Assembly: GCA_964622145.1 (NCBI GenBank)
Contig: CAZUOK010000001.1
Coordinates: 1 to 42,348, forward strand
Length of the DNA: 42,348 nucleotides
Reading direction: 5' to 3'
From: Candidatus Woesearchaeota archaeon
GTDB lineage: Archaea; Nanobdellota; Nanobdellia; CAYMVK01; CAYYFB01
The notes beneath the pieces are model-generated. The model searched no databases. It was not told where the DNA came from and was given only the letters and a program-made list of their open reading frames with translations. Within the stretch, counting starts at the first letter, position 1; every line of letters begins with the position of its first letter. The position numbers and the translations under genes are program-made. This document shows, piece after piece, positions 3,854 to 36,449 of the stretch.

Positions 3854-4285
3854 ATGCAGATGGTAGATGTGATAATGATAATCTCCTTTTCAATCATTCT
3901 CTTCCTTCTTTACAGAAAGTTGACTGATATTGAAAGGAAAATGAGGAGGTTTGAGAAAGCTATAAAGGAGATATCCGTAGAGGTCATTGCAAGCAAGATA
4001 TCGCAGTCTGATGAAGACTTTCAAAGCATAATATCCTCTCTAAGTGAGAGATTGCTTGAAATGATAAAGGAAAAGTATGGTTTGGAAGGCGTGATGACCT
4101 TAGAAGAGATGAAGAAGAGGGTTCTTTCAAAAGACATTCCCGAGGAGGAAAAGATGGATCTGGCACAGTTTTTGGATTACTTGATGTACATGGAGTATTC
4201 TCCAAAAGGTATGGATAGAGAACTTAGAGAAAAGATGAAGAATGTTGTTTCTAGAATACTTAGGAGGTTAGGTGAAGAGGGTTGA
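3854..4285 (+). CDS. Small membrane protein (N-terminal TM helix plus charged helical, coiled-coil-like domain)
   Basis: 143 aa with an N-terminal hydrophobic helix (VIMIISFSIILFLLY) followed by a K/E-rich helical sequence. GAGGTG lies about 12 nt upstream of the ATG. The gene is 24 nt downstream of 2186..3829, so it is probably co-transcribed. No family recognised. Confidence 0.6.
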   Translation: MQMVDVIMIISFSIILFLLYRKLTDIERKMRRFEKAIKEISVEVIASKISQSDEDFQSIISSLSERLLEMIKEKYGLEGVMTLEEMKKRVLSKDIPEEEKMDLAQFLDYLMYMEYSPKGMDRELREKMKNVVSRILRRLGEEG

Positions 4286-10090: not shown

Positions 10091-10122
10091 ACTGTTCCTT
10101 AACCCCCTTATTTTTTAAAGGA

Positions 10123-11769: not shown

Positions 11770-11784
11770 AACTAAGGAGCTTCA

Positions 11785-20700: not shown

Positions 20701-23700
20701 AGGTACTTCCTGACTTGGGGTATGGATGGATCAACTTCAGGAAATCTCACCATATTTGTAACAGAGAATGATACCGTAATAAGTGTAAAGAACATGTCCT
20801 CAGGAAATTATTTGATTCAAAACCAGGTCTACAACTTTGGAGATGTTGTCCACCTCTCGACAAGCCCTCATGTCTTTGAGATAAACTCCTCGAAGCCAGT
20901 GCTTGTAGTAATATCCCAGGATGACGCGTTTACTTCTAGAGATATAGGATACAGAATTCCGAGCTTCAATGGGACCTGGGATGGTACGTACTTCAAGTTT
21001 TATCTAACTTATGCAGGAGGGTTCTACATTGTTAATCCCAACGATCATCCAATAAACTATACCGTTTCAGGTTGCATAACCGGATCTGGGACAGTTGGAC
21101 CGAAGAGTAGTGTCCTTATAACTGGAGGGACTGCTGGAAGCCTTTGTGAGGTCTGGACAACAGAAAGGGCCCTTCTATTCTCAGAGATCTATGCGGACGT
21201 ACAGTATTATATAACTTCTCTCGATGGGGCAACGACGGGGAAGGAGTTTGTGTACAGGGTGGAGGATCCATACCAGGGAGGTAATGTAGTAATTGGGATA
21301 CACGTACTCTTTGATGGGACGGATGTTCAGGATGGTTGTTCGGGGGTCTACTGGACAAATCTGAACAAAGGATGGCACTACTACAGAAATGCTAAGAGCT
21401 CCGGGGAATGTAGGATCATAGCATCAAAGCCCATTGTTGTGTTGCTGATGGTTTCTGAACAAGAACCCTCCTACACTGTCTCCGTACCAGAGTGGCATAT
21501 GGATTGGAAAGAAAAACCAATAATTAGGGTTTACAAGGAAATCTCAACGAGGATATTTGTCCATGACATCCCATCAACATTCTCTTCAACCCCACCAGAG
21601 AGACTCTATCAGAACGGTCCCCCCGTCTACTACAACTTCTCCATGAAGAACCTTTGGAGAGAGAATATAACGAATCTTGCAATAAGGATAAACTGCCCAA
21701 ATCTTCCTGGTCTTACTTGTGAGTGTGTGGACAACCCAGGGCATCCCTACTGTAATGTTGGGAATCTAACTCCAAATCAAGAAATAACGGTCTCTTTCAA
21801 GATAACCGCAACGGAGGACACACCAACAGGGAATTACATTGTAAATGCAACCGTAAGCTATCTCAATCCACTAGGGAACAACAAGACTTGGAGGGAGGTT
21901 GAGCCTCAAACACTTGAGATCAGGACGTATGGGATCATGGAGATAACGGTGTACAGCTACCCTGAGAATGTTACAAGAGGTTCAAATGCAACTTTCAAGG
22001 CTTATGCAAACAACACTGGTGATCAGACAGCTCCCGAGGCTTGGCTTGCTTATTCTGTGTATCCTTCAGGATGGAGTATTGTTGAAGGATCTCGGAATGT
22101 TACAGCAACAAATGTTAGTCCTGGACAAATATTCTGGAACAACGTAACATTTTATGTGTCCCAAAGCTCTTCCCTTGGAGCTCAACAGGTAAAACTAGAA
22201 TCCGGCTCATCCCTTGACCAGAAAGACTTCAAGGTTGTTACAATTTATGTCTACGCAAACACGACACTAAATATCTGGTTAAACGACACGGATGCTAGCA
22301 GAGGGGAGTACGTTGAGGTGTTTGCAAAGCTCATGTATGATAATGGAACACCAGTGAAAGGTCAAAAAATTGAATTCTACGATGAGACGGACAACAGGTT
22401 CTTGGGATCCTCTATAACAAATTCCCAAGGTATAGCAAGTGTTATCTATTATTTAAATGAGTCTGTCTCTCTAGGAACCCACACCATAAACGCGAGTTAT
22501 CCTGGTAACTCAACGCTCTACTTGAACCCATCAGAAAACAGGACAACCCTTGAGGTTGGTCTGAAGCCAACAATACACTGGATAGAAATAGTTCCAAGCA
22601 TAGTTGGGTATGGGAAGAACGTTACCATAAGGGCAAATGTCACGGATGACAAGGGGGTTTCAAATGTAACAGCAGAGATAATATCTCCTGATGGTGAGAA
22701 AGAGACTGTTGTCCTCCAAAACGTTTACAGCACAATTTATGAAAGAGAATACTCTCCGAAGTGGCTGAATGGGACGTACAATGTGACAGTAATTGCGGAG
22801 GATACGAGTGGAAGTATAACAAAGGCTTTCTCCCAATTCCAGGTTGAGATAGAGAGTGAAATACTTGTGGAAACTGAAAAGCAATCTTATTTACCAACCG
22901 AGAATGTAAGATTGAAGAAGAATACTATATTCCCACTGAAATACAAAGTAGAGATAAAAATAAGGAGCAATGAAAGCGTGAACATAACGGAATATCAGAT
23001 TATGATAACCTTCAACAGCTCAAAGTTGATATCTGAAGGAAAGATGAGGGATGATTGTGGGGATCTGAGATTTTCATGGTTAAACAAGTCCTCTGGAGAG
23101 GAGGTTGAAATTCCATATTTCCTCGATTACGGATGTGGGGAAGGTGAGACGGTTGTTTGGGTAAAGGTTCCTTTAGTGTATGCAAACAATGTGACAACGA
23201 TATACATGTATTATGGAAACCCTGCCGTTACAAGCGATAGCAGTGAATTCGATGTGTTTACATTTGAAAAAGAAAATGCAACAACATTCTGGACAGTAAG
23301 CTCAGAGAGTGTTGGTCAAAATCTTGACATACAAGCCTTCCTAAACAACACAAGTGTTATATGGGAAGGAAGCTCTCAAAAGATTCAAAATGGAACATCG
23401 TATCAATTGTCATCTCCTTCATCCCAGACAAGCACACTTTCCCATGACAAACCTATATTTGGAGCGTTTGAGGGAGATACAACAGAGGCTCTGCATCCAA
23501 TCTCCTGGGCTGGAAAGAAGTTTGCATATTATGTTTATAGAGGAACAAACGAATGGCACATCTGTGCTCCATTTGGTGATGCCAAAGTACAGATATACGA
23601 CGGAACCACTCTTCTAGCAACGTATAATATACAGAAAGGGAACTGTATCGTTGCAAACAACGATGTAACGGATGGTAGCGTTGTGATAATAGAATCAAAT

Positions 23701-26700
23701 GAAAGCATACTTGTCCAACATGTGGATACCACAAACAACTACGATTCCAGGATTCTTTATCCCGTTTCCACAAGACTTTACGGAGTCCCATCAGAAAGAT
23801 TTGAAATAGCTGCAATAGAAGATGGGACAACTGTCAACATATACTGTTCGGATGGATACACAAACACCCTGACATTGGATAGGGGACAGGGCTGGGACTA
23901 TGCAATAGGAGGGTCTGAAGGTACTGCCCCAGCATGTGTGATAATATCCAACAAGCCTGTTGGTGCAAACTCGCTTGCAGATTCGGATGGTACAGAAACA
24001 ACAACCTTCCTACCTCTGGAAGAATTGGACAGGTATTACGTCTTCCCACAACCAGTTCAATACGTTGCGGTGGCAGCACCATTTGATGAGACAACCTGTA
24101 CTTTGTACAATCCAGACGGGACGGTCTACGACTCCCAGACAGCGTATGTATCCGGAAACGCTCCCGGAAAGATATACTTCGGTTCCACAACAGATGGAAC
24201 AAATATACAAGCTGGCTCTTACATGATATGTAACAAGCCTGTCTTTGCATACTATGAGTACGCAACCACAAACGATGAAACCCAATTGTTTGGTCCAAAG
24301 GCAAACAGGAAGTACAGCCCAAGGATTTACGTTGAGAGCTTTGGAAATGAAACCCTTGCGGTTAGCCAGGTGATAAACTACAAGAGGATATTTGAGGGAT
24401 ATATAATAGCGGAGGTTGAGAAGAAGATTGGGGAGAGCTGGGTAAGAAAGAGTGTTCTTGTAAACGATACCACAACCGGAACGAGGAGAGAGTTTAATTT
24501 ATCTTTGTTTGATCTTTCAAAAGTCATTCCGGCCTGGAATCCTGAAGGGGAGACAGGAGAGTTTAGGATGAAGATATACGTCACAGATCCAGAAGGGAAC
24601 ATCCTGAACACAACGGATGGGAAATTGATAGGGTATGCTTACTTCAACGTCAGCCAGCCTCCATTGAAATTGAATGTGAGTGAGATCAGGGTTTACGAAA
24701 CTCCTTATGGAGAGCATGGGGGAGGGACGCTTGTTGACAAAGGAATTAACAAGACATTTATACTCGAGTCCGGAAAGGTCTACAGATTTGAGATCGATGT
24801 TGATGTCCTTTCTGATTCCCAGACCTGGAACATAACTGAAGCTAACGTTACTTTTGAAAATCTAAATCAATCCTGGATAATAGATGTCCAGAACGATGTC
24901 TGGTATCTGAACCAAACAGATACTGCGGAAAGGCTTGGAGGACTGTTTACAAACGGTATTTTGAAGTGGAATACAAGCGAGAATGATGGTACCGCGGATA
25001 ACGGGACAAAGGTAACTTTCTACTTCATACTAAATCTTACTGGGGCATCGGAGGAGGAAAGGGGTGTTCTCTTCAGGATTGAGACCCCAACCACAATTGT
25101 AAAGGATTTTGACACATTAAAGATAATAGTACCAGATACAACACCACCAAACCCTGTAATTTATGGGCTAAACACAACTGAGATATTCAGAGGGGAAAGT
25201 GTCTTGGCGTATGCTCAGTGGAATGAAGAGATAAAGAATGCAACAATAGAGTACAATTCTACAACAAAGTTCCTGAACAATTACACAATTCCAGGCCCAT
25301 ATACAAACAACTGGACGAACTATACAATAGAAACAACATCCCTGTGGTTACTTGGAAGACACTACGTAAGGATATACGCATCAGATCTCTCTGACAACTG
25401 GAACAAGACACCCGCAATGTACTTTAAGGTCTACGGGTTAGCTTACGTGAGTTCAATCTCAACAAACAATTCGAATCCCCTGGTAGGAGATACCGTAAAG
25501 ATAACCTGTCTCATCCTGGATGACACAAATGATCAGGGGATAGAGAATTACAATGTGAGCTTCTGGGTAAACAATTCTTATATAGGATCAAATCTGACAA
25601 ATTCGTCTGGATATGCAGAAATAACCTACCAATTCACAAGTCCTGGAAGTTACGAGATAAAGTGTAACATTACGGAAGATTTAGACAGATATTACAAGGT
25701 AGACAATAGGAATGAAAAATCCACAACGGTCTTTGTTAGGGAAACCGAGCCTCCAAAGTGGTGGGAGGTTGTTTACCCAAGTCTCGCACATAAGGGAGAC
25801 ACTGTGAACTTGAGTGTTAGGTGGAAGGACAACTTCGAACTGGATTACGCAATTCTCTCAACGAACGAGTCCGGAACTATGGAGAATGTTAGCTATATGA
25901 AACTGTCTGGGAAGGATGCTTGGGCAAACTTCTCGTATCAGATACCAACCACAATATCTCCTGGGTACATTATTTGGAAACAATACGCAAACGATACCTC
26001 GAACAACTGGAACGTTACAGACGAATACCTCATTGAGGTCTGGGGATGGGCGGAGGTTTCAAATGCGGTTGTGAACCCTTCCAGCATACAGCAGGGTGGA
26101 ACCACAACCATGTACTGTAAGATTGTGGATGCTAATCAAACAACGGTTGGGATTGAAGGGTACAACGTATCCTTCTACCTCGGAAACACACTACTTGGAT
26201 ACAATCTCACAAACTCTTCCGGGTGGGCGGAGTACACATTCACTGTAAACACAGCTGGAACTTACACCGTTAAATGTATCATTGGGGATTACCCAGAGAA
26301 GAAGTACAACGCCAGCAGTAAGAATGAAGGATCTGACACACTTACGGTATCGGCAACAGAAGACATATATCCTCCACAAATTGTAGACAACAACTACGGA
26401 TTGAATGCCACAAAGATCTACAGATACGACGCCATCCTTGTCTATGGACAGTGGAATGAGACAATAGACACCGCATGGGTGGAGTACAACAAAACAAGTT
26501 CTTTGATAACAGAGACCGTCCCCGGACCTTATACAAACAACTGGACAAACCACACGATCGTTACTGATGATGCATGGACACCTGGAGTCCACGTTGTAAA
26601 GCTATACGCAAACGATACCTCCGGTAACATAAACGACACATTACCCTACCTCTCCTTTGAAATGTGGGGAAGAAGCGCGGTTTACTGGGTATCACCAAAT

Positions 26701-29700
26701 GAAACTTACAGAGAGGTCGTTGACCTGGTATGTCAGGTGAAGGATTACGACACCGGAAGTCCGATAAGTGATTATGTTGTAGAATTCTACAACTCCACAA
26801 GCTATTTGGGATCAAACAAGACGGATTCAAATGGATATGCTAGGCTTAGAGTTGATCTCTCAAGCTACACGCCAGGATACAACACATTCTACTGCAAGAT
26901 TGTAAAAGATGATGAGAAATATTATGATCCCGCGGTATCTTCTGTTGGAAAGGATGTTCTTATAAAGGGAAAACTCAATGTGACAATAGTAAATCCTGAG
27001 AATGGAAGCTCTCTTGAAAGAGGGGAGACGTACTGGCTAAACTCAACAACATATGATGAATTTGGCAACAAGGTAACACCTGATTCATCATATTGGTTTG
27101 AGGGGCAAACGGAGATAGGATCCGGAGAGAACATCACATGGACTGTTCCATCGGATCATCCCCTCGGTCCAACAGTTATAAAAGTAAACGTTACAAAACA
27201 ATACTACGATCCCGCTGAGGACAACATAACAGTGTACATCTACGGTCATTCCTCAGTTGTGTGGGTATCACCAGAAGATGGGAGCTATCCATCAGGAAGC
27301 ATCCTGGAATTGATATGTTATGTAAACGACACAGATAGAAATTCTGGGATATCTGGATATCCCGTAAGCTTCTACTACAATGGAACCCTCATAGGGACAT
27401 CTAATACAAACTCAACAGGTTACGCTGTAATATCATGGGATACTTCAGGATTGGATGGAACGTACAATGTAAGTTGTGAAATTGGAAACTACAGTTATTA
27501 TATAGCAAAGAAAACATCAGATTCCACAATGATTGAGGTATACCTTGACACAACACCACCAAACGTCACGATAGTATCTCCAGAGAACAAGAGCTACAAC
27601 ATAAATACAATACCTCTGAATTACACCGTACAAGACGAACACTTGGATTCCTGTTGGTACGAACTTGATGGGACGAATTACTCACTTCCAAATTGTGAGA
27701 ACACAACGCTTACAAACTTACAGGAAGGAAGTCATTATGTAAGGGTCTATGCGAACGATACTGCTGGGAATGTTGGATATTCCGAAGTTTGGTTTACTGT
27801 TGACCTTACAAGTCCCGTAATAACCATAATATCTCCCGAAAACAGAACGTATGGTGAAACAGGAATTTGGATGAATATAACACTAAATGAGGCTGGAAGT
27901 GTGTGTATGTACTCTATAGATGGTGGACAAAACCAAACAATGAACAAGCTTAACGATACTTACTTCTACAGGTTCGCATCTGTTGGAGAGGGAACTCACA
28001 AGGTCAAATTCTTCTGTAACGATACCGCAGGGAACTGGGGGAGTGCCCAAGAATTCTTCACAGTAGATCTAACGGCCCCCACAGTAACACTCTACGAACC
28101 CGAAAACAATAGTGTTCTAGATCAAGGCAATGTAACCTTCAAATGCTATGCAGAAGACAATCTAAAACTCATTAACGTTACTCTATACACAAACAAGTCT
28201 GGATCTTTCTCTCCAGAGCTAACAAACTCGAGCGGGATAAATGGAAATTATACATTCAAACTAACAATGTCAGAAGGATATTATATCTGGAACTGCAAAG
28301 CTTGCGATGATATCAGATGCTCATTTTACTCAGAAAATTGGAGCTTCTATGTGGACTTGAATGCTCCCACTGTTACAGTAGTATCACCGGAAAACAAGAG
28401 TTACAATACGAATACAATACAACTAAATTATAGTGCAAGTGACTTAACCTTGGATTCCTGTTGGTACGAACTTGATGGGACGAATTACTCACTTCCAAAT
28501 TGTGAGAACACAACGCTTACAAACCTTGCGGAGGGATCCCATCATCTAATCGTTTATGCGAATGACAGTTTGGGTAGAGTAGGATATGATGAGGTTTGGT
28601 TTAGAGTTGATTTGACACCTCCAAGCCTTGTTGTTGTCTCTCCAGAGAACAACACAGAGTATGGGACTCCAAACGTCCCACTAGAGTATTCCGTCTCCGA
28701 TAACATAGAGGTGGATACTTGTTGGTACGTCCTTGATGGCGGTCAGCCAACAGTATTGCTAAACTGCCAGAACACAACGCTATCTCTTGACAACGGTCCA
28801 CACAATATAACTGTGTACGTAAACGACACTGCCGGAAACACGAACCAGAGCTTTGTACAATTCACAGTAAACTCAACAGCCCCATACGTAAAGATCCTAC
28901 ATCCTGTTGAGGGGAACTACTACAACAACCAAACCATATGGTTGAACTATACAGTACAGGATACGGATCTTGATTCCTGTTGGTACAGCATAGACGGTGG
29001 AGACAATGTTAGCATTCCAAACTGTCAAAACATAACCATAACGGTCTCCGATGGCTCACACAATGTGAAGGTATATGCAAACGATAGTCTTAATCAGATT
29101 GGATGGGATTCTGTGAACTTCTTCGTTGACACTGTCCCCCCAAGCCTTGTGTTGATATCTCCGGAAAACAAGAGTTATAGTGAGAATACGATATGGATAA
29201 ATTACACCGTGAACGATACAAATCTTGATTACTGTGTTTACGAGCTGGATGGCTCGAACACAACAGTATCTGATTGTAGTAATGTAAGTCTGGAGTTGTC
29301 AGAGGGAAGCCACTACGTAAGGGTGTTTGCATTCGATAAAGCAGGGAACTACAACGTAACCTCAAAGGTCTGGTTCACAGTTGACACAACACCACCAAAC
29401 GTCACGATAGTATCTCCAGAGAACAAGACGTACACTGTGAACGATATCCCACTAAACTACACGGTATCTGATAACTTCGAGATATCCATGTGCTGGTATG
29501 TCCTGGACTCCCAGGAGGAGGTCTATCTACAAGGCTGTCAGAACACAACATTAACGAATGTTCCTGATGGGAGTCATAGGATAAGGGTCTATGCGAATGA
29601 CTCTGCTGGGAATGTTGGATACTCTGAGGTTTGGTTTACTGTTGACACAAGGGGTCCGAACATATATTTCGTCCCACCAACCCCAGGAGATAACCAAGCT

Positions 29701-32700
29701 ATAGATTACAATTGGACTTACATAAACATAACAACGGATGAGGATGCTAGCATCGCAATACTGGAATTCGATTTCAACAACGGTACGGTTTTGAACTTTA
29801 CCATGAATCAGAACAATCCAAGGAATTGGTGGTACAATGTTACGGATCTCCAGGATGGGACGTACTATTATAGAGTCCATGCGAACGATACCTTCGGCAA
29901 CTGGAATACAACAGCATGGAGAACTGTCAGGATCTCTGTTGGGGCTCCAGCAATAAACATAATATCTCCAGAGAACAAGACATACAAGGATTCTAACTAC
30001 ATCCAGCTGAACGTTACTGTGAACAAAGAGGTTTCTGCTTGGTGGTATTCAATAAACAACGGTAGGAATATCACCTTCACTCCAAACATATCCATAGCCG
30101 CAAGGATTGGATCAAATGTTGTAAGGGTCTATGCGAACGACTCTGCTGGGAATGTTGGATACTCTGAGGTTTGGTTTACTGTTGACACAACCTTCTGGGA
30201 GGACAAGTTCGATCACTACAGTGGTCTTGAAATCTGGGAAAATATAACAATAGAAAATGGGAGTGCAAAGATAAGATTCTGTTATCCAGTATTTGAGCCT
30301 GATTGCTGGAAATATAGGGTAAGAATAAATGTATCAAATCCAGACACCCAAGACCACACAGATGTCCAGCTGAATCTTACTGTGGATACACAATCCCTTA
30401 TATCTGAAGGGAAGATGAATGGGAACTGTTCTGACATAAGGTTCACTTACTACAATCAGACCAGTGGGGAAGAGTACGAAATACCTTACTACATAGAATC
30501 GGGATGTAACACAACAAGCACGATAATCTGGGTAAAGGTTCCCTTCGTCCCCGCGGGAGGCAGTTCCATTATATACATGTACTACGGAAACCCTGGAGCT
30601 CAAGGAAGGTCAAATATCTCAGAGGTATTCAATTATTACAACAATATCGGACAGTGTAATGGCTCGGTGGCTGGGGGAAGCTGTTCAGTAATATTTGATG
30701 CCCCAGCTGGGGAAGTATTCTACGAGGCAAATCTCACTATGAGGATGGCTGGAGACTTCGGATATGGAGGATCATTCTCATCAGATGCTGTTTGTGATGA
30801 GAATTATGAGAGGGCAAATCTTATTGTTGACGGATCGGTAATAGGTTGTTATTCCACAGGCATTGATGGTTGTACACTGAACGAGCCTCCGGGGATGCCA
30901 GTAAGCATAGATGTCAGGAACAAGGGATCCGTAAATGTTACAGGAGATTCCACGGATGTTGTAAATCTTGATCCAAACAATTGTGGATTCTACTATAAGT
31001 TCGAGTTTGAAATAAGTGGATACACGAGGAAGAATGCTACCCTAGAGTACTCTGTTGGAACTGAAGAAGTTGCAATAAGGAATGCAAAGATTAGGAGCAT
31101 AGCAATAAAACCAAGGAAGGTTGCAAGATGGTTGAAGTTTTATGGTGTACACAGCATACCAACGGGGACAGGAATTGAGTACAGGATCCTTGACAGCAAC
31201 AACAACACCCTCCTTGTCTGCAATTCTGAGACAGCACAGACTGGTTGTGATCTCTCAGGTATTAATGCAAAAGAAATAAAATTAGAAGCAGTATTGACAA
31301 CAAACTCAGAGGCTACTCCAGAACTCATGTACTGGAATGTATCCTGGACACCAAACTCAAGTGTTGCGATAAACGTCATAAATGAGACCTCTGGAACCAT
31401 ATCGAACGCTCTTATAAGAATTCTAAGAAATGGAACAGTATTGGCTGAAGGTTATGGAAGTGTTGTTGTAGATGTTGAGATATACGAAAACTACACAGTA
31501 GAAACAATTACAGGAACATCTTATGGAGATCTCCTGCTAAGACTCTTTGAGCTCAATGTTACAAAGGATACAATAGAAATAAAGGAACAAATTGTTGAGA
31601 ACTACACAGGAAACCTCCCACAAAACATCTGGAAGGTCACTCCAGTTGTTGCTCTGAACGACACAGACTTGAATTACTCCAAGGCGACGCTTGTGATACC
31701 GAAGGGAGATGTCCAAAGCATTGATTATATATTACACTGTACGGACTGGAACTACACCTCAGCAACATGTAACAACTGGGTTACATCAGATCCAAACAGT
31801 TACGAGGGATTTGGTGAAAACTCAACACACTTCTGGTTCAACGTGACAGGATTCCAGGCATACGCTGGAGGGACTGTAGGATATGATGTACAAGTGAATG
31901 AAATAACATTTAACAAAACAAAGCCTGTTGAAAATGAAACCGTGCTTGTAACAGCAAATGTGAGTAATGAGGGAAGTTCTGATCTCACAAATGTTACCAT
32001 AAGGCTTGAGATATATCTATGGAATGAAACTTCAGGAAGCTGGATACTGGATGAGAGCTATGAGAAGAACGTCTCAATACCCGTAGGAAACTACACACTC
32101 GTAAACTTTACTTGGACGGCAAAGATAGGTACCTACAATTTCACAGTAATTGCAGATCCCTACGATCAGATTGATGAGGTAAACGAGAGCAACAATGCAA
32201 ACTGGAGCGAGCTAAATGTTTCCGCATGGACAATATACTATGGACACGTGAATGGTTGGATAGTTATAGGAGGAAACAACGGAGAAAACTTTACGGTTTG
32301 GATACCTTATATGATAGAGGGAAATCTTTACTTTGCAGATCAAGACTCAAGCTTTGAATTTGAGAATCTCATGCCATTAAATGGAACAAACGATCTTGAA
32401 GAGCTGGATGAAGCGCTTAACATGAGCATATACAAAGATTCTGTATCAAACGTTTATGATAAGGATGGGGATGGTGTACCAGACCACACGGATTGTTTCA
32501 GCATAGGTAACAGGCTCCTATGCGATGTGCCAGTAGTAAATTCAACCGAAGAAAACAACGGAAACTTTGTTACAGGGATACTTTGGGATTCAGGAGATGG
32601 AGGAACAGAGTACAATGGAACACAAGATGTTGTTTTTATAACGAAGGTAAACTATAACAAAACAGGAAGTTTTGGAAGATACGACTACGAGGTAAGAATA

Positions 32701-32766
32701 CCCGCATTGTTGAGGGATCTCAAGGGAACTGTAGACAAGATCGTAATATACGTGGAGATCAAGTAA
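11785..32766 (+). CDS. Giant (6,993-codon) multidomain cell-surface glycoprotein/adhesin-like protein with DUF2341, LamG, Ig-like and CARDB modules
   Basis: One uninterrupted ORF of 20,982 nt. AAGGAG lies 5 nt upstream of the ATG at 11785. An alternative ATG at 11851 gives a classical signal peptide. There is no C-terminal TM. NxS/T sequons are frequent throughout the ORF. Recognisable modules are listed as separate features below. Confidence 0.95.
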   Translation: MKNVFKHNCERYLKKDEIWGCLMEIWKIIPVAFMIFLLLPINIAALNLTNSTNKTASSRKFYEIFFENPERQCKGSVAIYGRVLENGKGYTGPIEISVNGTLYQVYSENGRFKMPIELETGRYEIIGSIGGYSSRTFIEVVNCGEVRLYYNSSCEQVTFWGYAKINGENYTGFGRLIVNDSEIQVEFLNGNMIPYSTTLLPGRYKVSLEVLGIRDTKIIIVQLCKPTLVVNNYTICAQFDKPFIVVIGNNTYDVKGKFCRELPPGRYNVTVRWDEGSISSEVFLPRIDIKMRKVYSPRESILFKVFSDIYPVCYQIPEIGISKCTNHTTIRIGKLEEGNYTLVIKVGDVTLKRYFRVFRKVIRKIFGEHEFIIEGNVSVEKVGEKYVLKGSGFVSLNLTSNPFIISYAWERAGKKYKPLNLSFEINGTKEIILPRRSRFDVGVVKKGSIAEVIAEHRKMFLKVIGGTFDKVFVVDPESIPEKPREFPNKLLKVYIRTNESKVRLYLSKKYRYPEVWKFNPKRFEWRKIGYSIEGDYIVVTLEDGGPFDEDGEKNGVIVDDIGITTSWWNESWKWRRIYNITSSKNQNITGFPAYIIVNTSKLISEGKMRGDCGDVRFTFWNRTSNSEEEIPYLFVGPCNSSHSLIWFRLPVLYDNSTSTTVFMYFGNPNATDNSDPQAVFPGLRAYWAFEEGSGNVTKDYSGNNFDGVLTDVAGGDPPLWRNTSSCVVGYCIESDDIGDAVNLSYLAVNGLDNVTFEAWIKTTDNRWGLISGANSGQDNEYLIYLETTPELRLYIKGSYDGVPPGSLTDGNWHHLVVVRNSDGTAEFYLDGSLLGTVSGLRTGTLTIDPNGLWLLQEQDSVGGSWDTTQVFIGLVDEVRIYNRSLSQDDIQKRVTNYTKTLVLEEYLAKLNVTIDYPSEGFVAIRYEPFWLNGTVHCVRGNCSNVSVYAQYIEPTGISGEVIEDTQQDFINYSEKVNVSIFDYLKLQPETGKSWWNESWRYRMKINISYTGQGNLTEYTVNVTIDTQSLITQGKMSPNCSDIVFTYYNQTTESEYEIPYWIESGCNTTNTVIWVRVPLIRNSTNETIYMYYGNPNAKIYYDPDDVFEYFVNFTKLGVQSAYGSGQDITPNNWEIVNDTILHLWGNNWKGVYYGPIKIEGDGSQILELYMNGTDTAEIYGVGFDVDLDNVNDARGSFYKFAGSQAWGLTPDQSYTNFGNWQRVYAILDDFSGQYLYFIFSNDDDADSNGNVWYKNVRVRKYATPEPTATVIGEEVLSIRPSGYYISKVIDLGSQDVRFGNIYWIAKVPQNTSLKVYTRSSSDGVAWSVWYEEINNTDVNAPDARYIQYKVEMTSQDPNKTPIFDKIVIEYTYTAPKFKDMKSSGTPFTTTNPYDCGVLDQTNNVCYPSFQVTPTEKGNFTLRLLANSTDTNIEPAESQWVNITVYERTYITDFKIQPSVQYKGGSVTISVRLLDASSNPIPNQNITFTDETDGTTIGSVLTDSNGYAVIQYNIPRNASLGYHTIRADYPGNSSLFYYSSWSTEQLKVSSSPQFWEIGTNDTYIGTGERVKIFANVTDEVGLDTVLVFITYPNGTEVNRTMTYNKASGYYEYVTEKLWEKGNYSFYIWANNTDGIENKSWTENFYLKIVGRLDVSTEKEKYKNFEILHLSNMNREWDMPGYAYRRWLSIYSNQTEWGTAVLRVDTKSLISEGKMNPDCSDIKFAKITTIEEIKVHIDNPYGVYRSDFVFPIEITDKRFLGKVDPAGRDIRIFTYKTDQPYSQEPDVPFWVESITSSRARIWIRHNLPINGLDLYIYYGKPGAESKSNYTAVFKEVVGEAGIVYTNDSWVNFSYLNSTGDTVFVFSSINTYYGSDEAFTRITKVNSSGFHVLIQESVALDQSHAYEKIGWIGFRKGAWIVCGKVIYVGNDSIDSNYKTVTVPYSFQDPVWVSQIQTFYETDPAHTRMNNPGSNSINIKIEETNTADTPHTYENVAYLVTEQFVCESGNFKIATGKKYHRQSSDVSATAGWTYYDLPNFPTTPVVVAKIMTERGGDNVHERIKDVTTDGFNYAMEEESGYDGPHIEEWNGYIAVTPGPIYGAKLEDTWPTTTIVEGPNVIAKTIEEIPHYLKSNCNQNDTEILVNLKQVSEGENRVYMYYGNPYDKEIENTGEDAINVFTYPSQYCSYVVLGIGGSSMDIVSYSHNNIISIGGTTITLNKGEYTTVSVSNGDEICSTGPISTGTQSTGDGAPAVPKTWAGKTFVVAVTRYNPVYFDIYALENATIRVYNSTGTGWTLVEEFSLSEGEYIQKSYPGGDSRVTTIEVSYLINSTGNILVFYRGKSDDYMPLTPANTELYLNPTQYLVIAAIYDNTNVNIYFSDGSSTTVTLNAGQGWVGGAYGSDGNANSVRIVSDKPIFAYQQADSDGTETTPGVSPKYMDRIFFFPQDAEYFVATTKTNKTTYCALYDTNGTLVNEWTVTASYPYPGKIGYGTGQDGTINIRKGYKLVCNESVIVIYEESSNDAETILYGPSAHAKIINVTYNDLGIEEDYYVNIENNGNETIRGYIYAIIQRFEDGQWVNVPPAIINDRASENLRVIGPGESLNLTYLWEYYGAWNTSSNPNGRYRVYVRFEDEKGNVITDWYGNPLEDYGYFEIIPADLSIINLTHKAMYEKDLEEYETNDTIDWINLTVTSLENTGIDTRVYLTFIDESGKYVGFGPNSEERTCGTIEENNTCSVSYGPVTIPENTGNLVVRFKVNLTAQNSGGAIFDTRGINFRYAVPLDVEEISGNNLINYPVMLILNVSDLINKGKVRSDLADLRVLDDKKKEVPRLILDYNETHKIIFFPTNLSANERKTYYLVYGNSSLSQPSYPDVYMFEYLSGYDQWKTISDSRQNLIIIAYFNNTKFKVEGGINVNGTLNAGEFYKVELPTNSQYSPLKYIIKTTKPVTVIIGSTELSRPNGATYSLDYLSRPYGRYFLTWGMDGSTSGNLTIFVTENDTVISVKNMSSGNYLIQNQVYNFGDVVHLSTSPHVFEINSSKPVLVVISQDDAFTSRDIGYRIPSFNGTWDGTYFKFYLTYAGGFYIVNPNDHPINYTVSGCITGSGTVGPKSSVLITGGTAGSLCEVWTTERALLFSEIYADVQYYITSLDGATTGKEFVYRVEDPYQGGNVVIGIHVLFDGTDVQDGCSGVYWTNLNKGWHYYRNAKSSGECRIIASKPIVVLLMVSEQEPSYTVSVPEWHMDWKEKPIIRVYKEISTRIFVHDIPSTFSSTPPERLYQNGPPVYYNFSMKNLWRENITNLAIRINCPNLPGLTCECVDNPGHPYCNVGNLTPNQEITVSFKITATEDTPTGNYIVNATVSYLNPLGNNKTWREVEPQTLEIRTYGIMEITVYSYPENVTRGSNATFKAYANNTGDQTAPEAWLAYSVYPSGWSIVEGSRNVTATNVSPGQIFWNNVTFYVSQSSSLGAQQVKLESGSSLDQKDFKVVTIYVYANTTLNIWLNDTDASRGEYVEVFAKLMYDNGTPVKGQKIEFYDETDNRFLGSSITNSQGIASVIYYLNESVSLGTHTINASYPGNSTLYLNPSENRTTLEVGLKPTIHWIEIVPSIVGYGKNVTIRANVTDDKGVSNVTAEIISPDGEKETVVLQNVYSTIYEREYSPKWLNGTYNVTVIAEDTSGSITKAFSQFQVEIESEILVETEKQSYLPTENVRLKKNTIFPLKYKVEIKIRSNESVNITEYQIMITFNSSKLISEGKMRDDCGDLRFSWLNKSSGEEVEIPYFLDYGCGEGETVVWVKVPLVYANNVTTIYMYYGNPAVTSDSSEFDVFTFEKENATTFWTVSSESVGQNLDIQAFLNNTSVIWEGSSQKIQNGTSYQLSSPSSQTSTLSHDKPIFGAFEGDTTEALHPISWAGKKFAYYVYRGTNEWHICAPFGDAKVQIYDGTTLLATYNIQKGNCIVANNDVTDGSVVIIESNESILVQHVDTTNNYDSRILYPVSTRLYGVPSERFEIAAIEDGTTVNIYCSDGYTNTLTLDRGQGWDYAIGGSEGTAPACVIISNKPVGANSLADSDGTETTTFLPLEELDRYYVFPQPVQYVAVAAPFDETTCTLYNPDGTVYDSQTAYVSGNAPGKIYFGSTTDGTNIQAGSYMICNKPVFAYYEYATTNDETQLFGPKANRKYSPRIYVESFGNETLAVSQVINYKRIFEGYIIAEVEKKIGESWVRKSVLVNDTTTGTRREFNLSLFDLSKVIPAWNPEGETGEFRMKIYVTDPEGNILNTTDGKLIGYAYFNVSQPPLKLNVSEIRVYETPYGEHGGGTLVDKGINKTFILESGKVYRFEIDVDVLSDSQTWNITEANVTFENLNQSWIIDVQNDVWYLNQTDTAERLGGLFTNGILKWNTSENDGTADNGTKVTFYFILNLTGASEEERGVLFRIETPTTIVKDFDTLKIIVPDTTPPNPVIYGLNTTEIFRGESVLAYAQWNEEIKNATIEYNSTTKFLNNYTIPGPYTNNWTNYTIETTSLWLLGRHYVRIYASDLSDNWNKTPAMYFKVYGLAYVSSISTNNSNPLVGDTVKITCLILDDTNDQGIENYNVSFWVNNSYIGSNLTNSSGYAEITYQFTSPGSYEIKCNITEDLDRYYKVDNRNEKSTTVFVRETEPPKWWEVVYPSLAHKGDTVNLSVRWKDNFELDYAILSTNESGTMENVSYMKLSGKDAWANFSYQIPTTISPGYIIWKQYANDTSNNWNVTDEYLIEVWGWAEVSNAVVNPSSIQQGGTTTMYCKIVDANQTTVGIEGYNVSFYLGNTLLGYNLTNSSGWAEYTFTVNTAGTYTVKCIIGDYPEKKYNASSKNEGSDTLTVSATEDIYPPQIVDNNYGLNATKIYRYDAILVYGQWNETIDTAWVEYNKTSSLITETVPGPYTNNWTNHTIVTDDAWTPGVHVVKLYANDTSGNINDTLPYLSFEMWGRSAVYWVSPNETYREVVDLVCQVKDYDTGSPISDYVVEFYNSTSYLGSNKTDSNGYARLRVDLSSYTPGYNTFYCKIVKDDEKYYDPAVSSVGKDVLIKGKLNVTIVNPENGSSLERGETYWLNSTTYDEFGNKVTPDSSYWFEGQTEIGSGENITWTVPSDHPLGPTVIKVNVTKQYYDPAEDNITVYIYGHSSVVWVSPEDGSYPSGSILELICYVNDTDRNSGISGYPVSFYYNGTLIGTSNTNSTGYAVISWDTSGLDGTYNVSCEIGNYSYYIAKKTSDSTMIEVYLDTTPPNVTIVSPENKSYNINTIPLNYTVQDEHLDSCWYELDGTNYSLPNCENTTLTNLQEGSHYVRVYANDTAGNVGYSEVWFTVDLTSPVITIISPENRTYGETGIWMNITLNEAGSVCMYSIDGGQNQTMNKLNDTYFYRFASVGEGTHKVKFFCNDTAGNWGSAQEFFTVDLTAPTVTLYEPENNSVLDQGNVTFKCYAEDNLKLINVTLYTNKSGSFSPELTNSSGINGNYTFKLTMSEGYYIWNCKACDDIRCSFYSENWSFYVDLNAPTVTVVSPENKSYNTNTIQLNYSASDLTLDSCWYELDGTNYSLPNCENTTLTNLAEGSHHLIVYANDSLGRVGYDEVWFRVDLTPPSLVVVSPENNTEYGTPNVPLEYSVSDNIEVDTCWYVLDGGQPTVLLNCQNTTLSLDNGPHNITVYVNDTAGNTNQSFVQFTVNSTAPYVKILHPVEGNYYNNQTIWLNYTVQDTDLDSCWYSIDGGDNVSIPNCQNITITVSDGSHNVKVYANDSLNQIGWDSVNFFVDTVPPSLVLISPENKSYSENTIWINYTVNDTNLDYCVYELDGSNTTVSDCSNVSLELSEGSHYVRVFAFDKAGNYNVTSKVWFTVDTTPPNVTIVSPENKTYTVNDIPLNYTVSDNFEISMCWYVLDSQEEVYLQGCQNTTLTNVPDGSHRIRVYANDSAGNVGYSEVWFTVDTRGPNIYFVPPTPGDNQAIDYNWTYINITTDEDASIAILEFDFNNGTVLNFTMNQNNPRNWWYNVTDLQDGTYYYRVHANDTFGNWNTTAWRTVRISVGAPAINIISPENKTYKDSNYIQLNVTVNKEVSAWWYSINNGRNITFTPNISIAARIGSNVVRVYANDSAGNVGYSEVWFTVDTTFWEDKFDHYSGLEIWENITIENGSAKIRFCYPVFEPDCWKYRVRINVSNPDTQDHTDVQLNLTVDTQSLISEGKMNGNCSDIRFTYYNQTSGEEYEIPYYIESGCNTTSTIIWVKVPFVPAGGSSIIYMYYGNPGAQGRSNISEVFNYYNNIGQCNGSVAGGSCSVIFDAPAGEVFYEANLTMRMAGDFGYGGSFSSDAVCDENYERANLIVDGSVIGCYSTGIDGCTLNEPPGMPVSIDVRNKGSVNVTGDSTDVVNLDPNNCGFYYKFEFEISGYTRKNATLEYSVGTEEVAIRNAKIRSIAIKPRKVARWLKFYGVHSIPTGTGIEYRILDSNNNTLLVCNSETAQTGCDLSGINAKEIKLEAVLTTNSEATPELMYWNVSWTPNSSVAINVINETSGTISNALIRILRNGTVLAEGYGSVVVDVEIYENYTVETITGTSYGDLLLRLFELNVTKDTIEIKEQIVENYTGNLPQNIWKVTPVVALNDTDLNYSKATLVIPKGDVQSIDYILHCTDWNYTSATCNNWVTSDPNSYEGFGENSTHFWFNVTGFQAYAGGTVGYDVQVNEITFNKTKPVENETVLVTANVSNEGSSDLTNVTIRLEIYLWNETSGSWILDESYEKNVSIPVGNYTLVNFTWTAKIGTYNFTVIADPYDQIDEVNESNNANWSELNVSAWTIYYGHVNGWIVIGGNNGENFTVWIPYMIEGNLYFADQDSSFEFENLMPLNGTNDLEELDEALNMSIYKDSVSNVYDKDGDGVPDHTDCFSIGNRLLCDVPVVNSTEENNGNFVTGILWDSGDGGTEYNGTQDVVFITKVNYNKTGSFGRYDYEVRIPALLRDLKGTVDKIVIYVEIK
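11795..11802 (-). promoter_or_regulatory. TATA-like box (minus strand TTTAAATA) for the 10123..11769 operon
   Basis: Centred about 29 nt upstream of the ATG at 11769 on the minus strand. Confidence 0.35.
11817..11825 (+). promoter_or_regulatory. TATA-like box (ATATTTAAA) that would serve an ATG at 11851 of the giant gene
   Basis: Centred about 30 nt upstream of the in-frame ATG at 11851. That ATG starts a textbook signal or anchor sequence (MEIWKIIPVAFMIFLLLPINIAA). Confidence 0.35.
12010..12858 (+). repeat. Four small beta-sandwich repeats with [PT]GRY signature (carboxypeptidase-regulatory-like, tentative)
   Basis: Recurring ends are ETGRYEIIGSIGG, LPGRYKVSLEVLG, PPGRYNVTVRWDEG and EEGNYTLVIKVGD, spaced about 60-75 aa apart. 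Confidence 0.5.
13483..13824 (+). repeat. DUF2341-like module 1
   Basis: WWNESWKWRRIYNI...LISEGKMRGDCGDVRFTF...EIPYLFVG...LIWFRLPVL...VFMYFGNPNA...AVF. Confidence 0.8.
13831..14460 (+). other. LamG / concanavalin-A-like jelly-roll domain (Laminin_G_3 type)
   Basis: LRAYWAFEEGSGNVTKDYSGNNFDGVL...VTFEAWIKT...GNWHHLVVVRNSDGTAEFYLDGSLLGT...FIGLVDEVRIYNRSLSQDDI. This is the full canonical motif series of LamG_3 domains. Confidence 0.85.
14764..15102 (+). repeat. DUF2341-like module 2
   Basis: WWNESWRYRMKINI...LITQGKMSPNCSDIVFTY...EIPYWIESGCN...VIWVRVPLI...IYMYYGNPNA...DVF. Confidence 0.8.
16825..17274 (+). repeat. DUF2341-like module 3 (atypical, with internal partial duplication)
   Basis: YRRWLSIYS...LISEGKMNPDCSDIKFA, then a second N-half (FPIEITDKRFLGKVDPAGRDIRIFTY), then VPFWVESI...RIWIRHNLP...LYIYYGKPGA...AVF. 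Confidence 0.65.
17275..18141 (+). repeat. Three-fold internal repeat domain with R..[GF]...E[ES]...H..E signature (family not identified)
   Basis: The three units are SDEAFTRITKVNSSGFHVLIQESVALDQSHAYEKIGWIGF, TDPAHTRMNNPGSNSINIKIEETNTADTPHTYENVAYLV and GGDNVHERIKDVTTDGFNYAMEEESGYDGPHIEEWNGYIAV. Confidence 0.55.
18142..18309 (+). repeat. DUF2341-like module 4 (C-terminal half only)
   Basis: EIPHYLKSNCN...EILVNLKQV...VYMYYGNPYD...NVF. The N-terminal W..W/ISEGKM half is missing. Confidence 0.6.
18310..19370 (+). other. ~350-aa beta-rich module, copy a (follows DUF2341-4)
   Basis: Internally repetitive strands of the type x-T-x-V-x-[IV]-Y...L-x-x-G-[EQ]...S-x-KP-[IV]-[FV]. Contains WAGKTFVVAV, NVNIYFSDGSSTTVTLNAGQGW, SDKPIFAYQQADSDGTETT and LVCNESVIVIYEE. 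Resembles IgGFc-binding-N-terminal-like beta-solenoid or sandwich modules (unverified). Confidence 0.5.
20116..20406 (+). repeat. DUF2341-like module 5 (divergent)
   Basis: NYPVMLILNVSDLINKGKVRSDLADLRVLDD...EVPRLILDY...KIIFFPTNL...YYLVYGNSS...VYMF. Confidence 0.6.
20407..21465 (+). other. ~350-aa beta-rich module, copy b (follows DUF2341-5)
   Basis: Same strand grammar as copy a: NTKFKVEGG...LNAGEFYKV...TTKPVTVIIG; NDTVISVKN...NFGDVVHL...SSKPVLVVISQ; ECRIIASKPIVVLLMV. Confidence 0.45.
22939..23259 (+). repeat. DUF2341-like module 6
   Basis: KYKVEIKIRS...LISEGKMRDDCGDLRFSW...EIPYFLDYGCG...VVWVKVPLV...IYMYYGNPAV...DVF. Confidence 0.8.
23260..24300 (+). other. ~350-aa beta-rich module, copy c (follows DUF2341-6)
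   Basis: Collinear with copy a: WAGKKFAYYV, TVNIYCSDGYTNTLTLDRGQGW, SNKPVGANSLADSDGTETT, MICNKPVFAYYEY, QLFGPKA (compare ILYGPSA in copy a). Confidence 0.55.
25132..27543 (+). repeat. Four tandem ~200-aa di-domain (A-B) Ig-like units
   Basis: A-type stretches: GPYTNNWTNYTIETTSLWLLGRHYVRIYASDLSDNWN and GPYTNNWTNHTIVTDDAWTPGVHVVKLYANDTSGNIN. B-type stretches: GIENYNVSFWVNNSYIGSNLTNSSGYAEITY, GIEGYNVSFYLGNTLLGYNLTNSSGWAEYTF, ISDYVVEFYNSTSYLGSNKTDSNGYARLRV and ISGYPVSFYYNGTLIGTSNTNSTGYAVISW. Confidence 0.75.
27544..30183 (+). repeat. Ten tandem ~85-95-aa Ig-like repeats (SbsA/Big/HYR-like G-S-H-x-[IV]-x-V-Y-A-N-D-x-A-G-N signature)
   Basis: Unit consensus: D-[TL]-T-P-P-x-V-x-[IV]-[IV]-SPENK-[ST]-Y...[IL]-x-LNYTV-x-D..LD-x-CWY-x-LDG.N....NC.NTTL..L.EGSH.[VI]RVYAND[ST]AGNVGYSEVWFTV. 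Units 3 and 9 are divergent. Perfect DNA repeats of 76, 48 and 52 nt link non-adjacent units. Confidence 0.85.
30307..30630 (+). repeat. DUF2341-like module 7
   Basis: CWKYRVRINVS...LISEGKMNGNCSDIRFTY...EIPYYIESGCN...IIWVKVPFV...IYMYYGNPGA...EVF. Confidence 0.8.
31882..32220 (+). other. CARDB domain
   Basis: YDVQVNEITFNKTKPVENETVLVTANVSNEGSSDLTNVTIRLEIY...GNYTLVNFTWTAKIGTYNFTVIADPYDQIDEVNESNNA. The canonical CARDB ending E-x-NE-x-NN is present. Confidence 0.8.
32221..32763 (+). other. C-terminal S-module of the giant protein (homologous to small secreted proteins S1/S2); contains a D-x-D-G-D-G-x-x-D Ca-binding-like motif
   Basis: AWTIYYGHVNGWIVIGGNNGENFTVW aligns with HWAGVFGNATGKLILGDASGYKLYEW (S1) and KWVGFWGEVSGQIVLGDSSGNIFYQW (S2). 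The end DYEVRIPALL...KIVIYVEIK aligns with NYQVILPEN...TYYVWIELV and DYQVLAGVN...TFYFYLELP. DKDGDGVPDHTD sits at 32458-32493. Confidence 0.6.
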
Positions 32767-32776: not shown

Positions 32777-32800
32777 TTGATTTTTTCAAAAAGAAGAGAT

Positions 32801-35728: not shown

Positions 35729-35736
35729 TTTATATA
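35729..35736 (+). promoter_or_regulatory. TATA box (TTTATATA) for the S2 gene
   Basis: Centred about 27-28 nt upstream of the ATG at 35760. Identical octamer and spacing as upstream of S1. Confidence 0.5.
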
Positions 35737-35759
35737 AAGGTAGTTGCTTCTGGAATGAC

Positions 35760-36449
35760 ATGATTAAGAAACTGCTTGTACTCTTTGCAGTGTTGCTGTT
35801 ACCAATGGCATTCTCGGTACCAGCAAACGCAACAGTATCTGCAGGTACATCAGAGAGATACCCAGAAGCAACAACTCCAGGAACTGTCACAGCGCAAGCT
35901 GGAAATGTAACACAAGTAAACGTGTCCAGTGTACAAGTAACAGGAAAATGGGTAGGTTTCTGGGGAGAGGTAAGTGGACAAATAGTGCTCGGAGATTCTA
36001 GTGGGAACATATTCTATCAATGGACAATATCCGATCCTACAGGGGCTGTTGTGTATGTGTGTAATGACACAGTTTCGGACTGGTCAACCCTACAGCCCCT
36101 GTATGCAAACAGCAGTGTTCTTCCGGACTTCCTGATAACAGGAACAGATTCCTTCAACAACACATTCAAATATCAAGAAACATTCACAAGTCCTAGCATG
36201 ACGATAAACAACGTAAATTACACACTTACATGGCAGAATGGTGCTGAAGGTTCAGACTTCAAGACATATGCATTGTACGCAAATGAAAGCGCAACAACTG
36301 GTAAGATAATACTTGTCTGGGCAGGCCTTGTAAACGCAAACAAGCCATCATTCAAGGGAGGGACTATAACAGCTGATTACCAGGTATTGGCTGGAGTAAA
36401 CACAGAGGGAGGACAACAAACATTCTACTTCTACCTAGAGCTACCGTGA
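35760..36449 (+). CDS. Small secreted protein S2 (S-module family; paralog of 1324..2040)
   Basis: 229 aa from ATG 35760. The track ORF starts at 35694, but that extension covers the TATA box and lacks signal-peptide character. Signal peptide is MIKKLLVLFAVLLLPMAFSVPANA. Collinear with S1 (see that feature). Confidence 0.85.
   Translation: MIKKLLVLFAVLLLPMAFSVPANATVSAGTSERYPEATTPGTVTAQAGNVTQVNVSSVQVTGKWVGFWGEVSGQIVLGDSSGNIFYQWTISDPTGAVVYVCNDTVSDWSTLQPLYANSSVLPDFLITGTDSFNNTFKYQETFTSPSMTINNVNYTLTWQNGAEGSDFKTYALYANESATTGKIILVWAGLVNANKPSFKGGTITADYQVLAGVNTEGGQQTFYFYLELP

Follow-up and report, generated by a model that had tools for sequence, protein, structure and literature searches.

The tip adhesins of chaperone-usher fibres, such as FimH and PapG, are large binding proteins that end in a homolog of the small secreted subunits from their own gene cluster, and this terminal copy lacks the N-terminal extension of the subunits. 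Fibres built by donor-strand exchange also exist in archaea–the Sulfolobus threads and the Pyrobaculum bundling (TasA-like) pili–where Sec exports small, beta-rich, glycosylated subunits that polymerise extracellularly with no type IV pilus machinery. A different precedent is set by the C-terminal domain (CTD) of the type IX secretion system (T9SS) and by SLH, CWB2 and PGF-CTERM, which are conserved modules that close many otherwise unrelated secreted proteins, often very large ones, at the extreme C-terminus. DPANN archaea are tiny, mostly episymbiotic organisms in whose small genomes giant surface proteins take up a large share. Here we describe a locus of Candidatus Woesearchaeota archaeon (assembly GCA_964622145.1, contig CAZUOK010000001.1, positions 1 to 42,348; this whole stretch of 42,348 nucleotides is referred to as the window) in which a giant secreted protein ends in a domain, called CT, that is homologous to two small secreted proteins, S1 and S2, and to the N-terminal domain of a further protein, P547. 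The features concerned are as follows.

11785..32766, plus strand: giant secreted protein, 6993 aa as an open reading frame (ORF), from the ORF list
31891..32199, plus strand: CARDB domain immediately N-terminal to CT (Pfam PF07705, E = 4e-10)
32206..32763, plus strand: CT, the C-terminal S-like domain of the giant (by CT hidden Markov model (HMM), hhalign and AlphaFold2), followed by the stop codon at 32764-32766
35760..36449, plus strand: S2, secreted S-family protein of 229 aa with signal peptide, conserved N-terminal arm and S-domain
1324..2040, minus strand: S1, stand-alone secreted S-family paralog of 238 aa (S-family HMM E = 3.7e-32; BLASTP against S2)
9446..10024, minus strand: S-type domain, including an 'EAGN' arm, at the N-terminus of P547 (whole gene 8447-10090; by hhalign and jackhmmer)

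The locus shares with FimH and PapG both the domain common to a large protein and its small neighbors and the absence of the subunits' N-terminal extension from the terminal copy, CT having no arm. Unlike chaperone-usher systems, its shared domain resembles Ig-like pilins neither in sequence nor in fold, it has no chaperone or usher, it belongs to an archaeon with a single membrane, and its 'adhesin' is up to about 7,000 aa long. Unlike the archaeal donor-strand fibres, the S proteins have no Pfam match (such as Peptidase_M73) and no Foldseek match to solved fibre subunits in PDB, and their polymerisation is only proposed here. CT resembles the T9SS CTD, SLH, CWB2 and PGF-CTERM modules in its position, and differs from them in that the same type of module also occurs as abundant stand-alone and transmembrane (TM)-anchored proteins, in that its end carries no TM helix or sortase-type signal, and in that it has no Pfam match to those families. 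It is a new domain family in a familiar logic, that of a probable terminal docking domain common to subunits, and it probably accounts for how these giant DPANN surface proteins are retained on the cell.

A preliminary description of this DNA, made from the letters alone, had placed the last domain of the giant at positions 32221-32766, after CARDB, and had proposed that it is homologous to S1 and S2. The placement is correct: these positions lie inside the span 32206-32763 plus the stop codon. The translation of 32221-32763, SAWTIYYGHVNGWIVIGGNNG...DKIVIYVEIK, is directly downstream of CARDB, and the CT HMM matches residues 6811-6996 of the open frame from 11776, equivalent to residues 6808-6993 of the giant. 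Pairwise comparisons, for which we used Smith-Waterman scores against 1000 shuffles, support the proposed homology in part. S1 and S2 are clearly related (BLASTP E = 5e-19; z = 21.9), and CT matches S2 (BLASTP E = 5e-5 over 51 aa; z = 6.7, with 0 of 1000 shuffles as good), but the match of CT to S1 is not significant (BLASTP E = 0.14; z = 1.9, with 51 of 1000 shuffles as good). The N-domain of P547 scores z = 4.8 against S1, z = 3.5 against S2 and z = 0 against CT.

At the sequence level, it is the profiles that decide the matter. We gathered 66 homologs of S2, and 11 and then 111 homologs of CT. When the CT family (alignment A2, 11 sequences) was compared to the S family (A1, 42 sequences) by hhalign, the match had a probability of 98.1% (E = 1.1e-13, score 91.6, 155 columns), and a deeper CARDB+CT alignment (A4) matched the S family with a probability of 98.3% (E = 1.4e-14, 168 columns). 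The aligned span takes in the whole of CT and S, from the W-x4-G-x3-G hairpin through the terminal Y-x-E-[LI] strand to the last residues. In 30 column-shuffled controls the top score was 21 (E = 0.027), and the reversed profile scored 24, so the alignments are significant at the profile level. HMMER searches agree in both directions: the S-family HMM matches the CT of protein P0084 (E = 2.5e-8) and 20 of 138 CT representatives, always colinearly (best E = 3e-9), and the CT HMM matches S2 (E = 7e-7) and an S-like protein (E = 8e-10). A first version of the S-family HMM gave only 6 bits against the whole giant, a result superseded by the profile-profile and homolog matches. AlphaFold2 modelled S2 with a mean pLDDT (predicted local distance difference test) of 89.6 and CARDB+CT with a mean of 93.9. 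Under the hhalign alignment, the three-state secondary structures of S2 and CT agree at 79.7% of 158 positions, compared to a mean of 40.7% and a maximum of 55.7% in shifted controls, which puts the strands and helices of the two models in register. The profile-profile comparison, the HMMER cross-matches and this register together confirm that CT is homologous to S1 and S2. Neither of two outcomes that would have spoken against the homology, alignments no better than shuffled controls or differing predicted folds, was observed.

The preliminary description had also suspected a weaker copy of the domain at the N-terminus of P547, and this copy is real. An hhalign comparison of five P547 orthologs to the S family gave a probability of 97.2% (E = 3.4e-11, 163 columns) over P547 residues 23-215, which are positions 9446-10024 on the minus strand, and jackhmmer draws in the S family at iteration 2. 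We therefore assign CT, S1, S2 and the P547 N-domain to one superfamily, for which we use the name S-domain (approximately 170-185 aa).

The S-domain is not represented in the databases that we searched. No Pfam or NCBIfam family corresponds to it in S1, S2, CT or 42 family members, none of the 66 S2 homologs has a Pfam domain, and PDB sequence and profile searches found no relative. By Foldseek, the S2 model has no fold match in PDB (best E = 0.35, TM-score at most 0.2) or in BFVD (best E = 0.056), and the CARDB+CT model matches PDB only through CARDB. Literature searches found no description of the S-domain or of its gene cluster. It is a previously undescribed family of all-beta extracellular domains, and its predicted fold is, provisionally, apparently new in comparison to PDB and BFVD. 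Archaeal S-layer domains (the PF05123-type S_layer_N/C) gave no Pfam match in S1, S2 or the 42 family members. The only characterised S-layer protein of Micrarchaeota is a different, 101-kDa protein of the PF05123 type (bioRxiv 10.1101/2021.04.28.441871). We disfavour the idea that S proteins are themselves the S-layer, though metagenome-assembled genomes (MAGs) of Micrarchaeota carry S loci.

The giant probably starts at M23 (position 11851), from which it has a typical signal peptide and a product of 6971 aa, the same length as a protein-library representative that has CT at its end. Pfam searches identified five DUF2341 stretches, a Laminin_G_3/pentaxin-like domain, many Ig-like domains, PKD, and the CARDB domain near the end, with CT following it. 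CARDB passes the Pfam gathering score (40.2 bits, against a cut-off of 22.7) and matches the CARDB domain of PF1109 (PDB 3idu; Foldseek E = 1.8e-7); CT itself is not a CARDB domain. The N-terminal hydrophobic signal, which ends with a signal-peptidase-like ...PINIAA/LN motif, is the only hydrophobic segment of the protein. Its opposite end, ...DKIVIYVEIK, does not have a sorting signal of the archaeosortase/PGF-CTERM or LPXTG type (motif, TM helix and basic tail), nor does it match a T9SS CTD (Por_Secre_tail-type); Pfam and NCBIfam searches with the last 521 aa returned only CARDB at E ≤ 0.1. The giants called SPEARE in Nanohaloarchaea are Ig-like-rich surface proteins that are thought to mediate host contact, and a membrane anchor and a VirB4/TraG-like ATPase domain are attributed to them (PMC10266531). 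We rejected a SPEARE-type assignment for the giant, which has no membrane anchor or VirB4/TraG-like ATPase and ends in CARDB and an S-like domain.

To describe the distribution of CT, we made an exhaustive HMMER search with a CT-only profile and counted cluster representatives. CT domains are found in 808 representatives, 780 of them with E ≤ 1e-10 and 664 with E ≤ 1e-30. Among the best 150 representatives, CT lies within 5 aa of the C-terminus in 149; half of the 150 (75) are longer than 1000 aa, 35 are longer than 3000 aa and 12 are longer than 5000 aa, and the largest has 7158 aa. A signal-like hydrophobic segment is present at the N-terminus of 56 of the 70 long, Met-started members, and a strong hydrophobic 19-mer beyond residue 100 was found in none of the long CT-bearing representatives. 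The lack of a membrane anchor at the C-terminal end, which had been remarked on for the giant, is therefore borne out in its relatives as well: none has a membrane helix beyond the N-terminal signal. Small complete proteins consisting of a signal peptide, CARDB and CT (approximately 320 aa) also exist. The N-terminal bodies are variable and CT is conserved across Woesearchaeal, Micrarchaeal, Aenigmatarchaeal and Nanohaloarchaeal MAGs, a pattern more in keeping with a cell-autonomous docking module than with a host-specific ligand binder. A terminal domain is thus common to hundreds of giants.

The stand-alone S proteins differ from CT by a conserved N-terminal arm of about 40 residues, present in them and absent from CT. 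In the S2 model this arm lies outside any sheet, with a pLDDT of 83-90. The MAGs that contain homologs of S2 carry the labels Aenigmatarchaeota, Woesearchaeota, Micrarchaeota, Nanohaloarchaea and Nanobdellota, which marks the window as DNA of a DPANN-type archaeon. Across 104 stand-alone sequences, conservation is strongest in the arm (eGGNvT..NL), in the first hairpin (T.kWAGfyGNVSG.IvL.D) and at the end (DFQllVpE...TTYYFYvEL), and the middle varies. A variable middle with conserved ends is typical of polymer-forming subunits.

We compared the window to 54 related loci, in which ORFs were labelled with family HMMs; many of these contigs are truncated. There are between one and seven S paralogs per locus. 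In 11 loci we found proteins consisting of a signal peptide, an S-domain with a GGNVT arm, a variable region, a C-terminal TM helix and a basic tail, and in a Nanohaloarchaeal locus an S-type N-domain is fused to a TM protein like P482 of the window (see below). CT-ending large proteins occur within the available flank in 8 of 45 S-anchored loci (for example, proteins of at least 3067 aa and at least 2664 aa), and S-domain genes are no more than 10 kb away in 6 of the 7 CT-anchored loci. Woesearchaeal loci repeatedly contain a four-gene unit, [large protein][signal peptide-CARDB-CT][P548][S-domain-TM]. The arrangement to which the preliminary description had drawn attention, in which a large protein contains a single copy of a domain that is encoded as free-standing secreted subunits too, thus recurs across DPANN lineages, and by gene content the S-type cluster is conserved across DPANN phyla. 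One related locus (L049) has at positions 9005-10657 a 551-aa protein with an S-type domain and a GGNVS arm at its C-terminus, behind about 340 aa of other domains. By its domain order, this protein is intermediate between the stand-alone S and the CT architectures.

Several of the genes that accompany S-domain genes have recognisable families.

10123..11769, minus strand: P548, with signal peptide, CWB2-like triple repeat, Ig-like domains and C-terminal TM anchor (a hydrophobic helix in the translation)
2186..3829, plus strand: P547b, a second P548-family paralog with C-terminal TM anchor (family membership by jackhmmer and BLAST)
32777-33811, plus strand: MoxR AAA+ protein (Pfam AAA_3, E = 1.5e-55)
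33789-34724, plus strand: DUF58 protein (Pfam, E = 3.8e-37)
34715-35707, plus strand: membrane vWA protein (Pfam VWA, E = 1.8e-19)

The P548 family is the most constant neighbor of S genes, being present in 39 of 51 sequences (50 loci and the window). P143, P580, the P282-P482 protein (all described below) and P547 also recur beside S genes. Its profile matches Cwp6 of Clostridioides difficile (PDB 5j72, E = 3.7e-12), and PF04122 (CWB2) was found in 4 of 30 family members; the window's own P548, searched alone, has no match. In C. difficile, CWB2 is the anchoring module of the Cwp/SlpA proteins, and P548, which is a neighbor of S genes and not itself an S-domain protein, matches the triple repeat of Cwp6. 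It differs from the Cwp/SlpA proteins in being archaeal and in having a C-terminal TM helix as a further anchor. DPANN archaea lack a cell wall, and a triple repeat like CWB2, familiar from the cell-wall proteins of Clostridioides, was not expected in them. The genes for the giant, MoxR, DUF58, vWA and S2 are on the same strand: 10 nt separate the giant gene from MoxR, the next two pairs overlap, and 52 nt lie before S2. A MoxR-DUF58-vWA triad is found beside S genes in 11-13 loci. These three families have the same order in Bat-type operons, which also lie beside genes for membrane or surface proteins, but here the triad is embedded among S-domain and giant-protein genes.

These observations suggest–and we put the probability only slightly above even–that the domain which these proteins share serves in co-assembly or docking and so links variable giants to an assembly of S proteins at the cell surface. 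The domain is found in three architectures within one conserved DPANN gene cluster: small secreted proteins consisting of the domain and an arm of approximately 40 residues (S1 and S2); proteins with the domain at their N-terminus, which in many lineages end in a TM helix and which are represented here by P547, without one; and variable, adhesin-like proteins as large as the giant, with an arm-less copy at the extreme C-terminus after CARDB. CT would plug the anchor-less secreted giant into the S-protein assembly by homotypic co-assembly. The assembly, whether a fibre, an oligomer or a patch, would be fixed to the membrane through its anchored members and through proteins of the P548 type, and the variable, lectin- and Ig-rich body of the giant would project outward. 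We base the docking role on CT being conserved and strictly terminal on variable, anchor-less giants, and on the same domain being found alone, in multiple copies and displayed at the membrane, co-encoded across phyla. The TM-anchored class of S-domain proteins in relatives fits a logic of tip, shaft and base. The TATA boxes of S1 and S2, the T-rich terminator of S2 and the enrichment of the giant, S1 and S2 in N-glycosylation sequons (2-3 times expectation) are also in line with co-assembly. Some coupling of the giant to S proteins is well supported by this context; from the same context we infer physical contact between S and CT, the geometry of the assembly and any role of MoxR, DUF58 and vWA.

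Several points weigh against docking by co-assembly. Neither AlphaFold2 model resembles a solved pilin, thread, TasA/ABP or other fibre subunit in Foldseek searches of PDB, and both monomer models are confident, apparently complete folds that demand no partner. In 37 of the 45 S-anchored loci no CT protein is present in the available flank, many of these contigs being short, and one CT locus (L053) has no S or P548 gene nearby. P547 in the window lacks a TM helix, but adjoins TM-anchored partners. Finally, the case for contact between S and CT is indirect. In the last-mentioned CT locus, an Exosortase_EpsH-family (archaeosortase-like) gene at positions 11326-12285 adjoins the gene for a protein with signal peptide, CARDB and CT.

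If docking by co-assembly holds, CT would most likely be received by the paralogs, secreted or membrane-anchored, and by the products of the conserved partner genes, and the question of anchoring is converted into concrete protein pairs: CT with S1 or S2, with P547, and with P548. The new family also provides a genomic marker for adhesin loci in DPANN metagenomes. A bolder form of the proposal, which we consider doubtful though possible, is that the locus encodes a dedicated DPANN surface-assembly system on a new fold. S subunits would polymerise through their conserved arms and termini on bases made of anchored S-domain or P548 proteins, and would carry interchangeable giant adhesins capped or joined by the arm-less CT. 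MoxR-DUF58-vWA may control assembly or release, and the whole would be a general attachment organelle for giant host-contact proteins.

The constancy of P548, with its CWB2-like module and C-terminal TM helix, could also be read differently. All S-type domains might bind a single receptor in the envelope, so that CT tethers the giant without touching S, and S1 and S2 are separate clients or regulators of occupancy. Candidate receptors are the CWB2-like module of P548, the extracellular vWA/MIDAS protein, the S-layer, a glycan or a lipid. The conserved Woesearchaeal four-gene unit is consistent with this idea, as is the distribution of N-glycosylation sequons: the giant has 292 of them (2.8 times expectation; 4.2 per 100 aa) and S1 and S2 have 2-2.5 times expectation, but the two P548-family proteins have about the expected number, which would fit glycan-mediated binding. 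However, a common receptor gives no role to proteins that consist only of the anchor domain, although no other members of the family are as numerous (1-7 per locus), and S-domain proteins that are already anchored in the membrane need no receptor. We regard this explanation as unlikely.

Of the interpretation in the preliminary description, which likened the locus to fibres assembled by beta-strand exchange, the coupling of the giant to S proteins is well supported by context, and the strand exchange is speculative. The arm raises the question of such a donor-strand mechanism, which is a special case of co-assembly. In this version the S proteins form a fibre by beta-strand exchange through the arm, the arm-less CT is the acceptor at the tip as in FimH and PapG, and the arm-bearing anchored proteins form the base. 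CT aligns with S only from the W-motif onwards, without the arm (APTGASVT...GGNVTxVNVS), and the anchored and P547-type members retain its GGNVT/EAGN portion; moreover, the arm of the S2 model is placed confidently without joining a sheet, and the several tandem S paralogs resemble sets of major and minor pilins. Against it, Foldseek found no similarity to a pilin, thread, TasA/ABP or incomplete Ig-like fold, CT is modelled at a pLDDT of 94 without any donor strand, and the arm does not have a clean alternating pattern of hydrophobic residues. In addition, the arm-bearing S-domain of the 551-aa protein mentioned above is internal, coming after about 340 aa of other domains, and the deeper profile alignment weakly pairs the arm with the end of CARDB, so that the arm may be a remnant. 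Strand exchange is, in our judgement, rather improbable.

Polarity could also be the reverse of what docking implies, with the giant held in the membrane by an uncleaved N-terminal signal anchor, CT sitting at the distal end and binding a target there, for instance a host surface, and S1 and S2 being soluble or short versions of it. The giant's sole hydrophobic segment is indeed N-terminal, and C-terminal knob-like binding domains are common in the fibres of phages and adenovirus, although such proteins appeared only among the non-significant Foldseek matches. We think that this arrangement has little chance of being correct, because its segment ends in the signal-peptidase-like motif, because S-domain proteins close to the membrane exist, and because CT is conserved, and the remainder variable, across phyla that presumably have different hosts, the opposite of what is usual for recognition heads (which vary) and anchors (which are conserved). 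Shared ancestry without functional interplay, through shuffling of domains among neighboring surface-protein genes, is very improbable: surface-protein islands often swap Ig-like and lectin modules and we infer rather than observe an S-CT interaction, but CT is strictly terminal (149 of 150), and there are three complementary architectures and a synteny that is conserved across phyla.

Other features of the window are as follows.

35729..35738, plus strand: TTTATATAAA, which matches the archaeal TATA-box consensus and lies about 25 nt ahead of the S2 ATG (read from the sequence)
6704-8446, minus strand: P580, with CARDB and a C-terminal module common to P547 (BLAST, jackhmmer, Pfam)
5854-6702 and 4445-5893, minus strand: P282 and P482, beta-helix/Ig-like proteins with C-terminal TM helix (BLAST, jackhmmer, Pfam)
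3854..4285, plus strand: P143, a small conserved protein with an N-terminal hydrophobic segment, found in 9 loci beside MoxR/vWA or P482

Homologs and the signal peptide place the start of S2 at the ATG at 35760, in an ORF listed from 35694. We take TTTATATAAA to be its promoter element, as in archaeal promoters of the B recognition element (BRE)/TATA type in general, and T-rich runs downstream of S2 resemble a terminator. A TATA-like sequence, TTTATATAG, lies about 25 nt upstream of S1 on the minus strand. The first ATG of the giant's ORF (11785) is 15 nt from the start of the divergent P548 gene. We tried the N-terminal regions of P580 and P282 as further copies of the S-domain and rejected them (hhalign E = 0.35-0.88). 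P282 and P482 have 4-4.5 times the expected number of sequons. Their genes overlap by 40 nt in different frames, and in relatives there is a single fused gene of 771-894 aa, which points to a frameshift, be it a pseudogene, recoding or an error of assembly. In five related loci–L011 (6733-8655), L014, L018, L020 and L021–the MoxR ORF has 520-640 aa when read from stop to stop, and so is possibly over-extended, compared to about 340 aa elsewhere; the long ORFs carry an unassigned N-terminal extension of approximately 190-300 aa.

Directly after S2, an ORF on the minus strand (36441-36797) matches PF18894, 'Putative phage metallopeptidase' (E = 5.5e-26). A 312-aa ORF at 41065-42003, also on the minus strand, has a match to PF01131, the type IA topoisomerase model, that is limited to model positions 102-410; lacking the N-terminal part, the gene may be split, frameshifted or part of a larger gene. 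Seven loci (L016, L019-L021, L025, L047 and L022) have the cluster in MAGs labelled 'uncultured Methanosarcinales' or 'Acidobacteriota', and these contigs are probably mis-binned or mislabelled.

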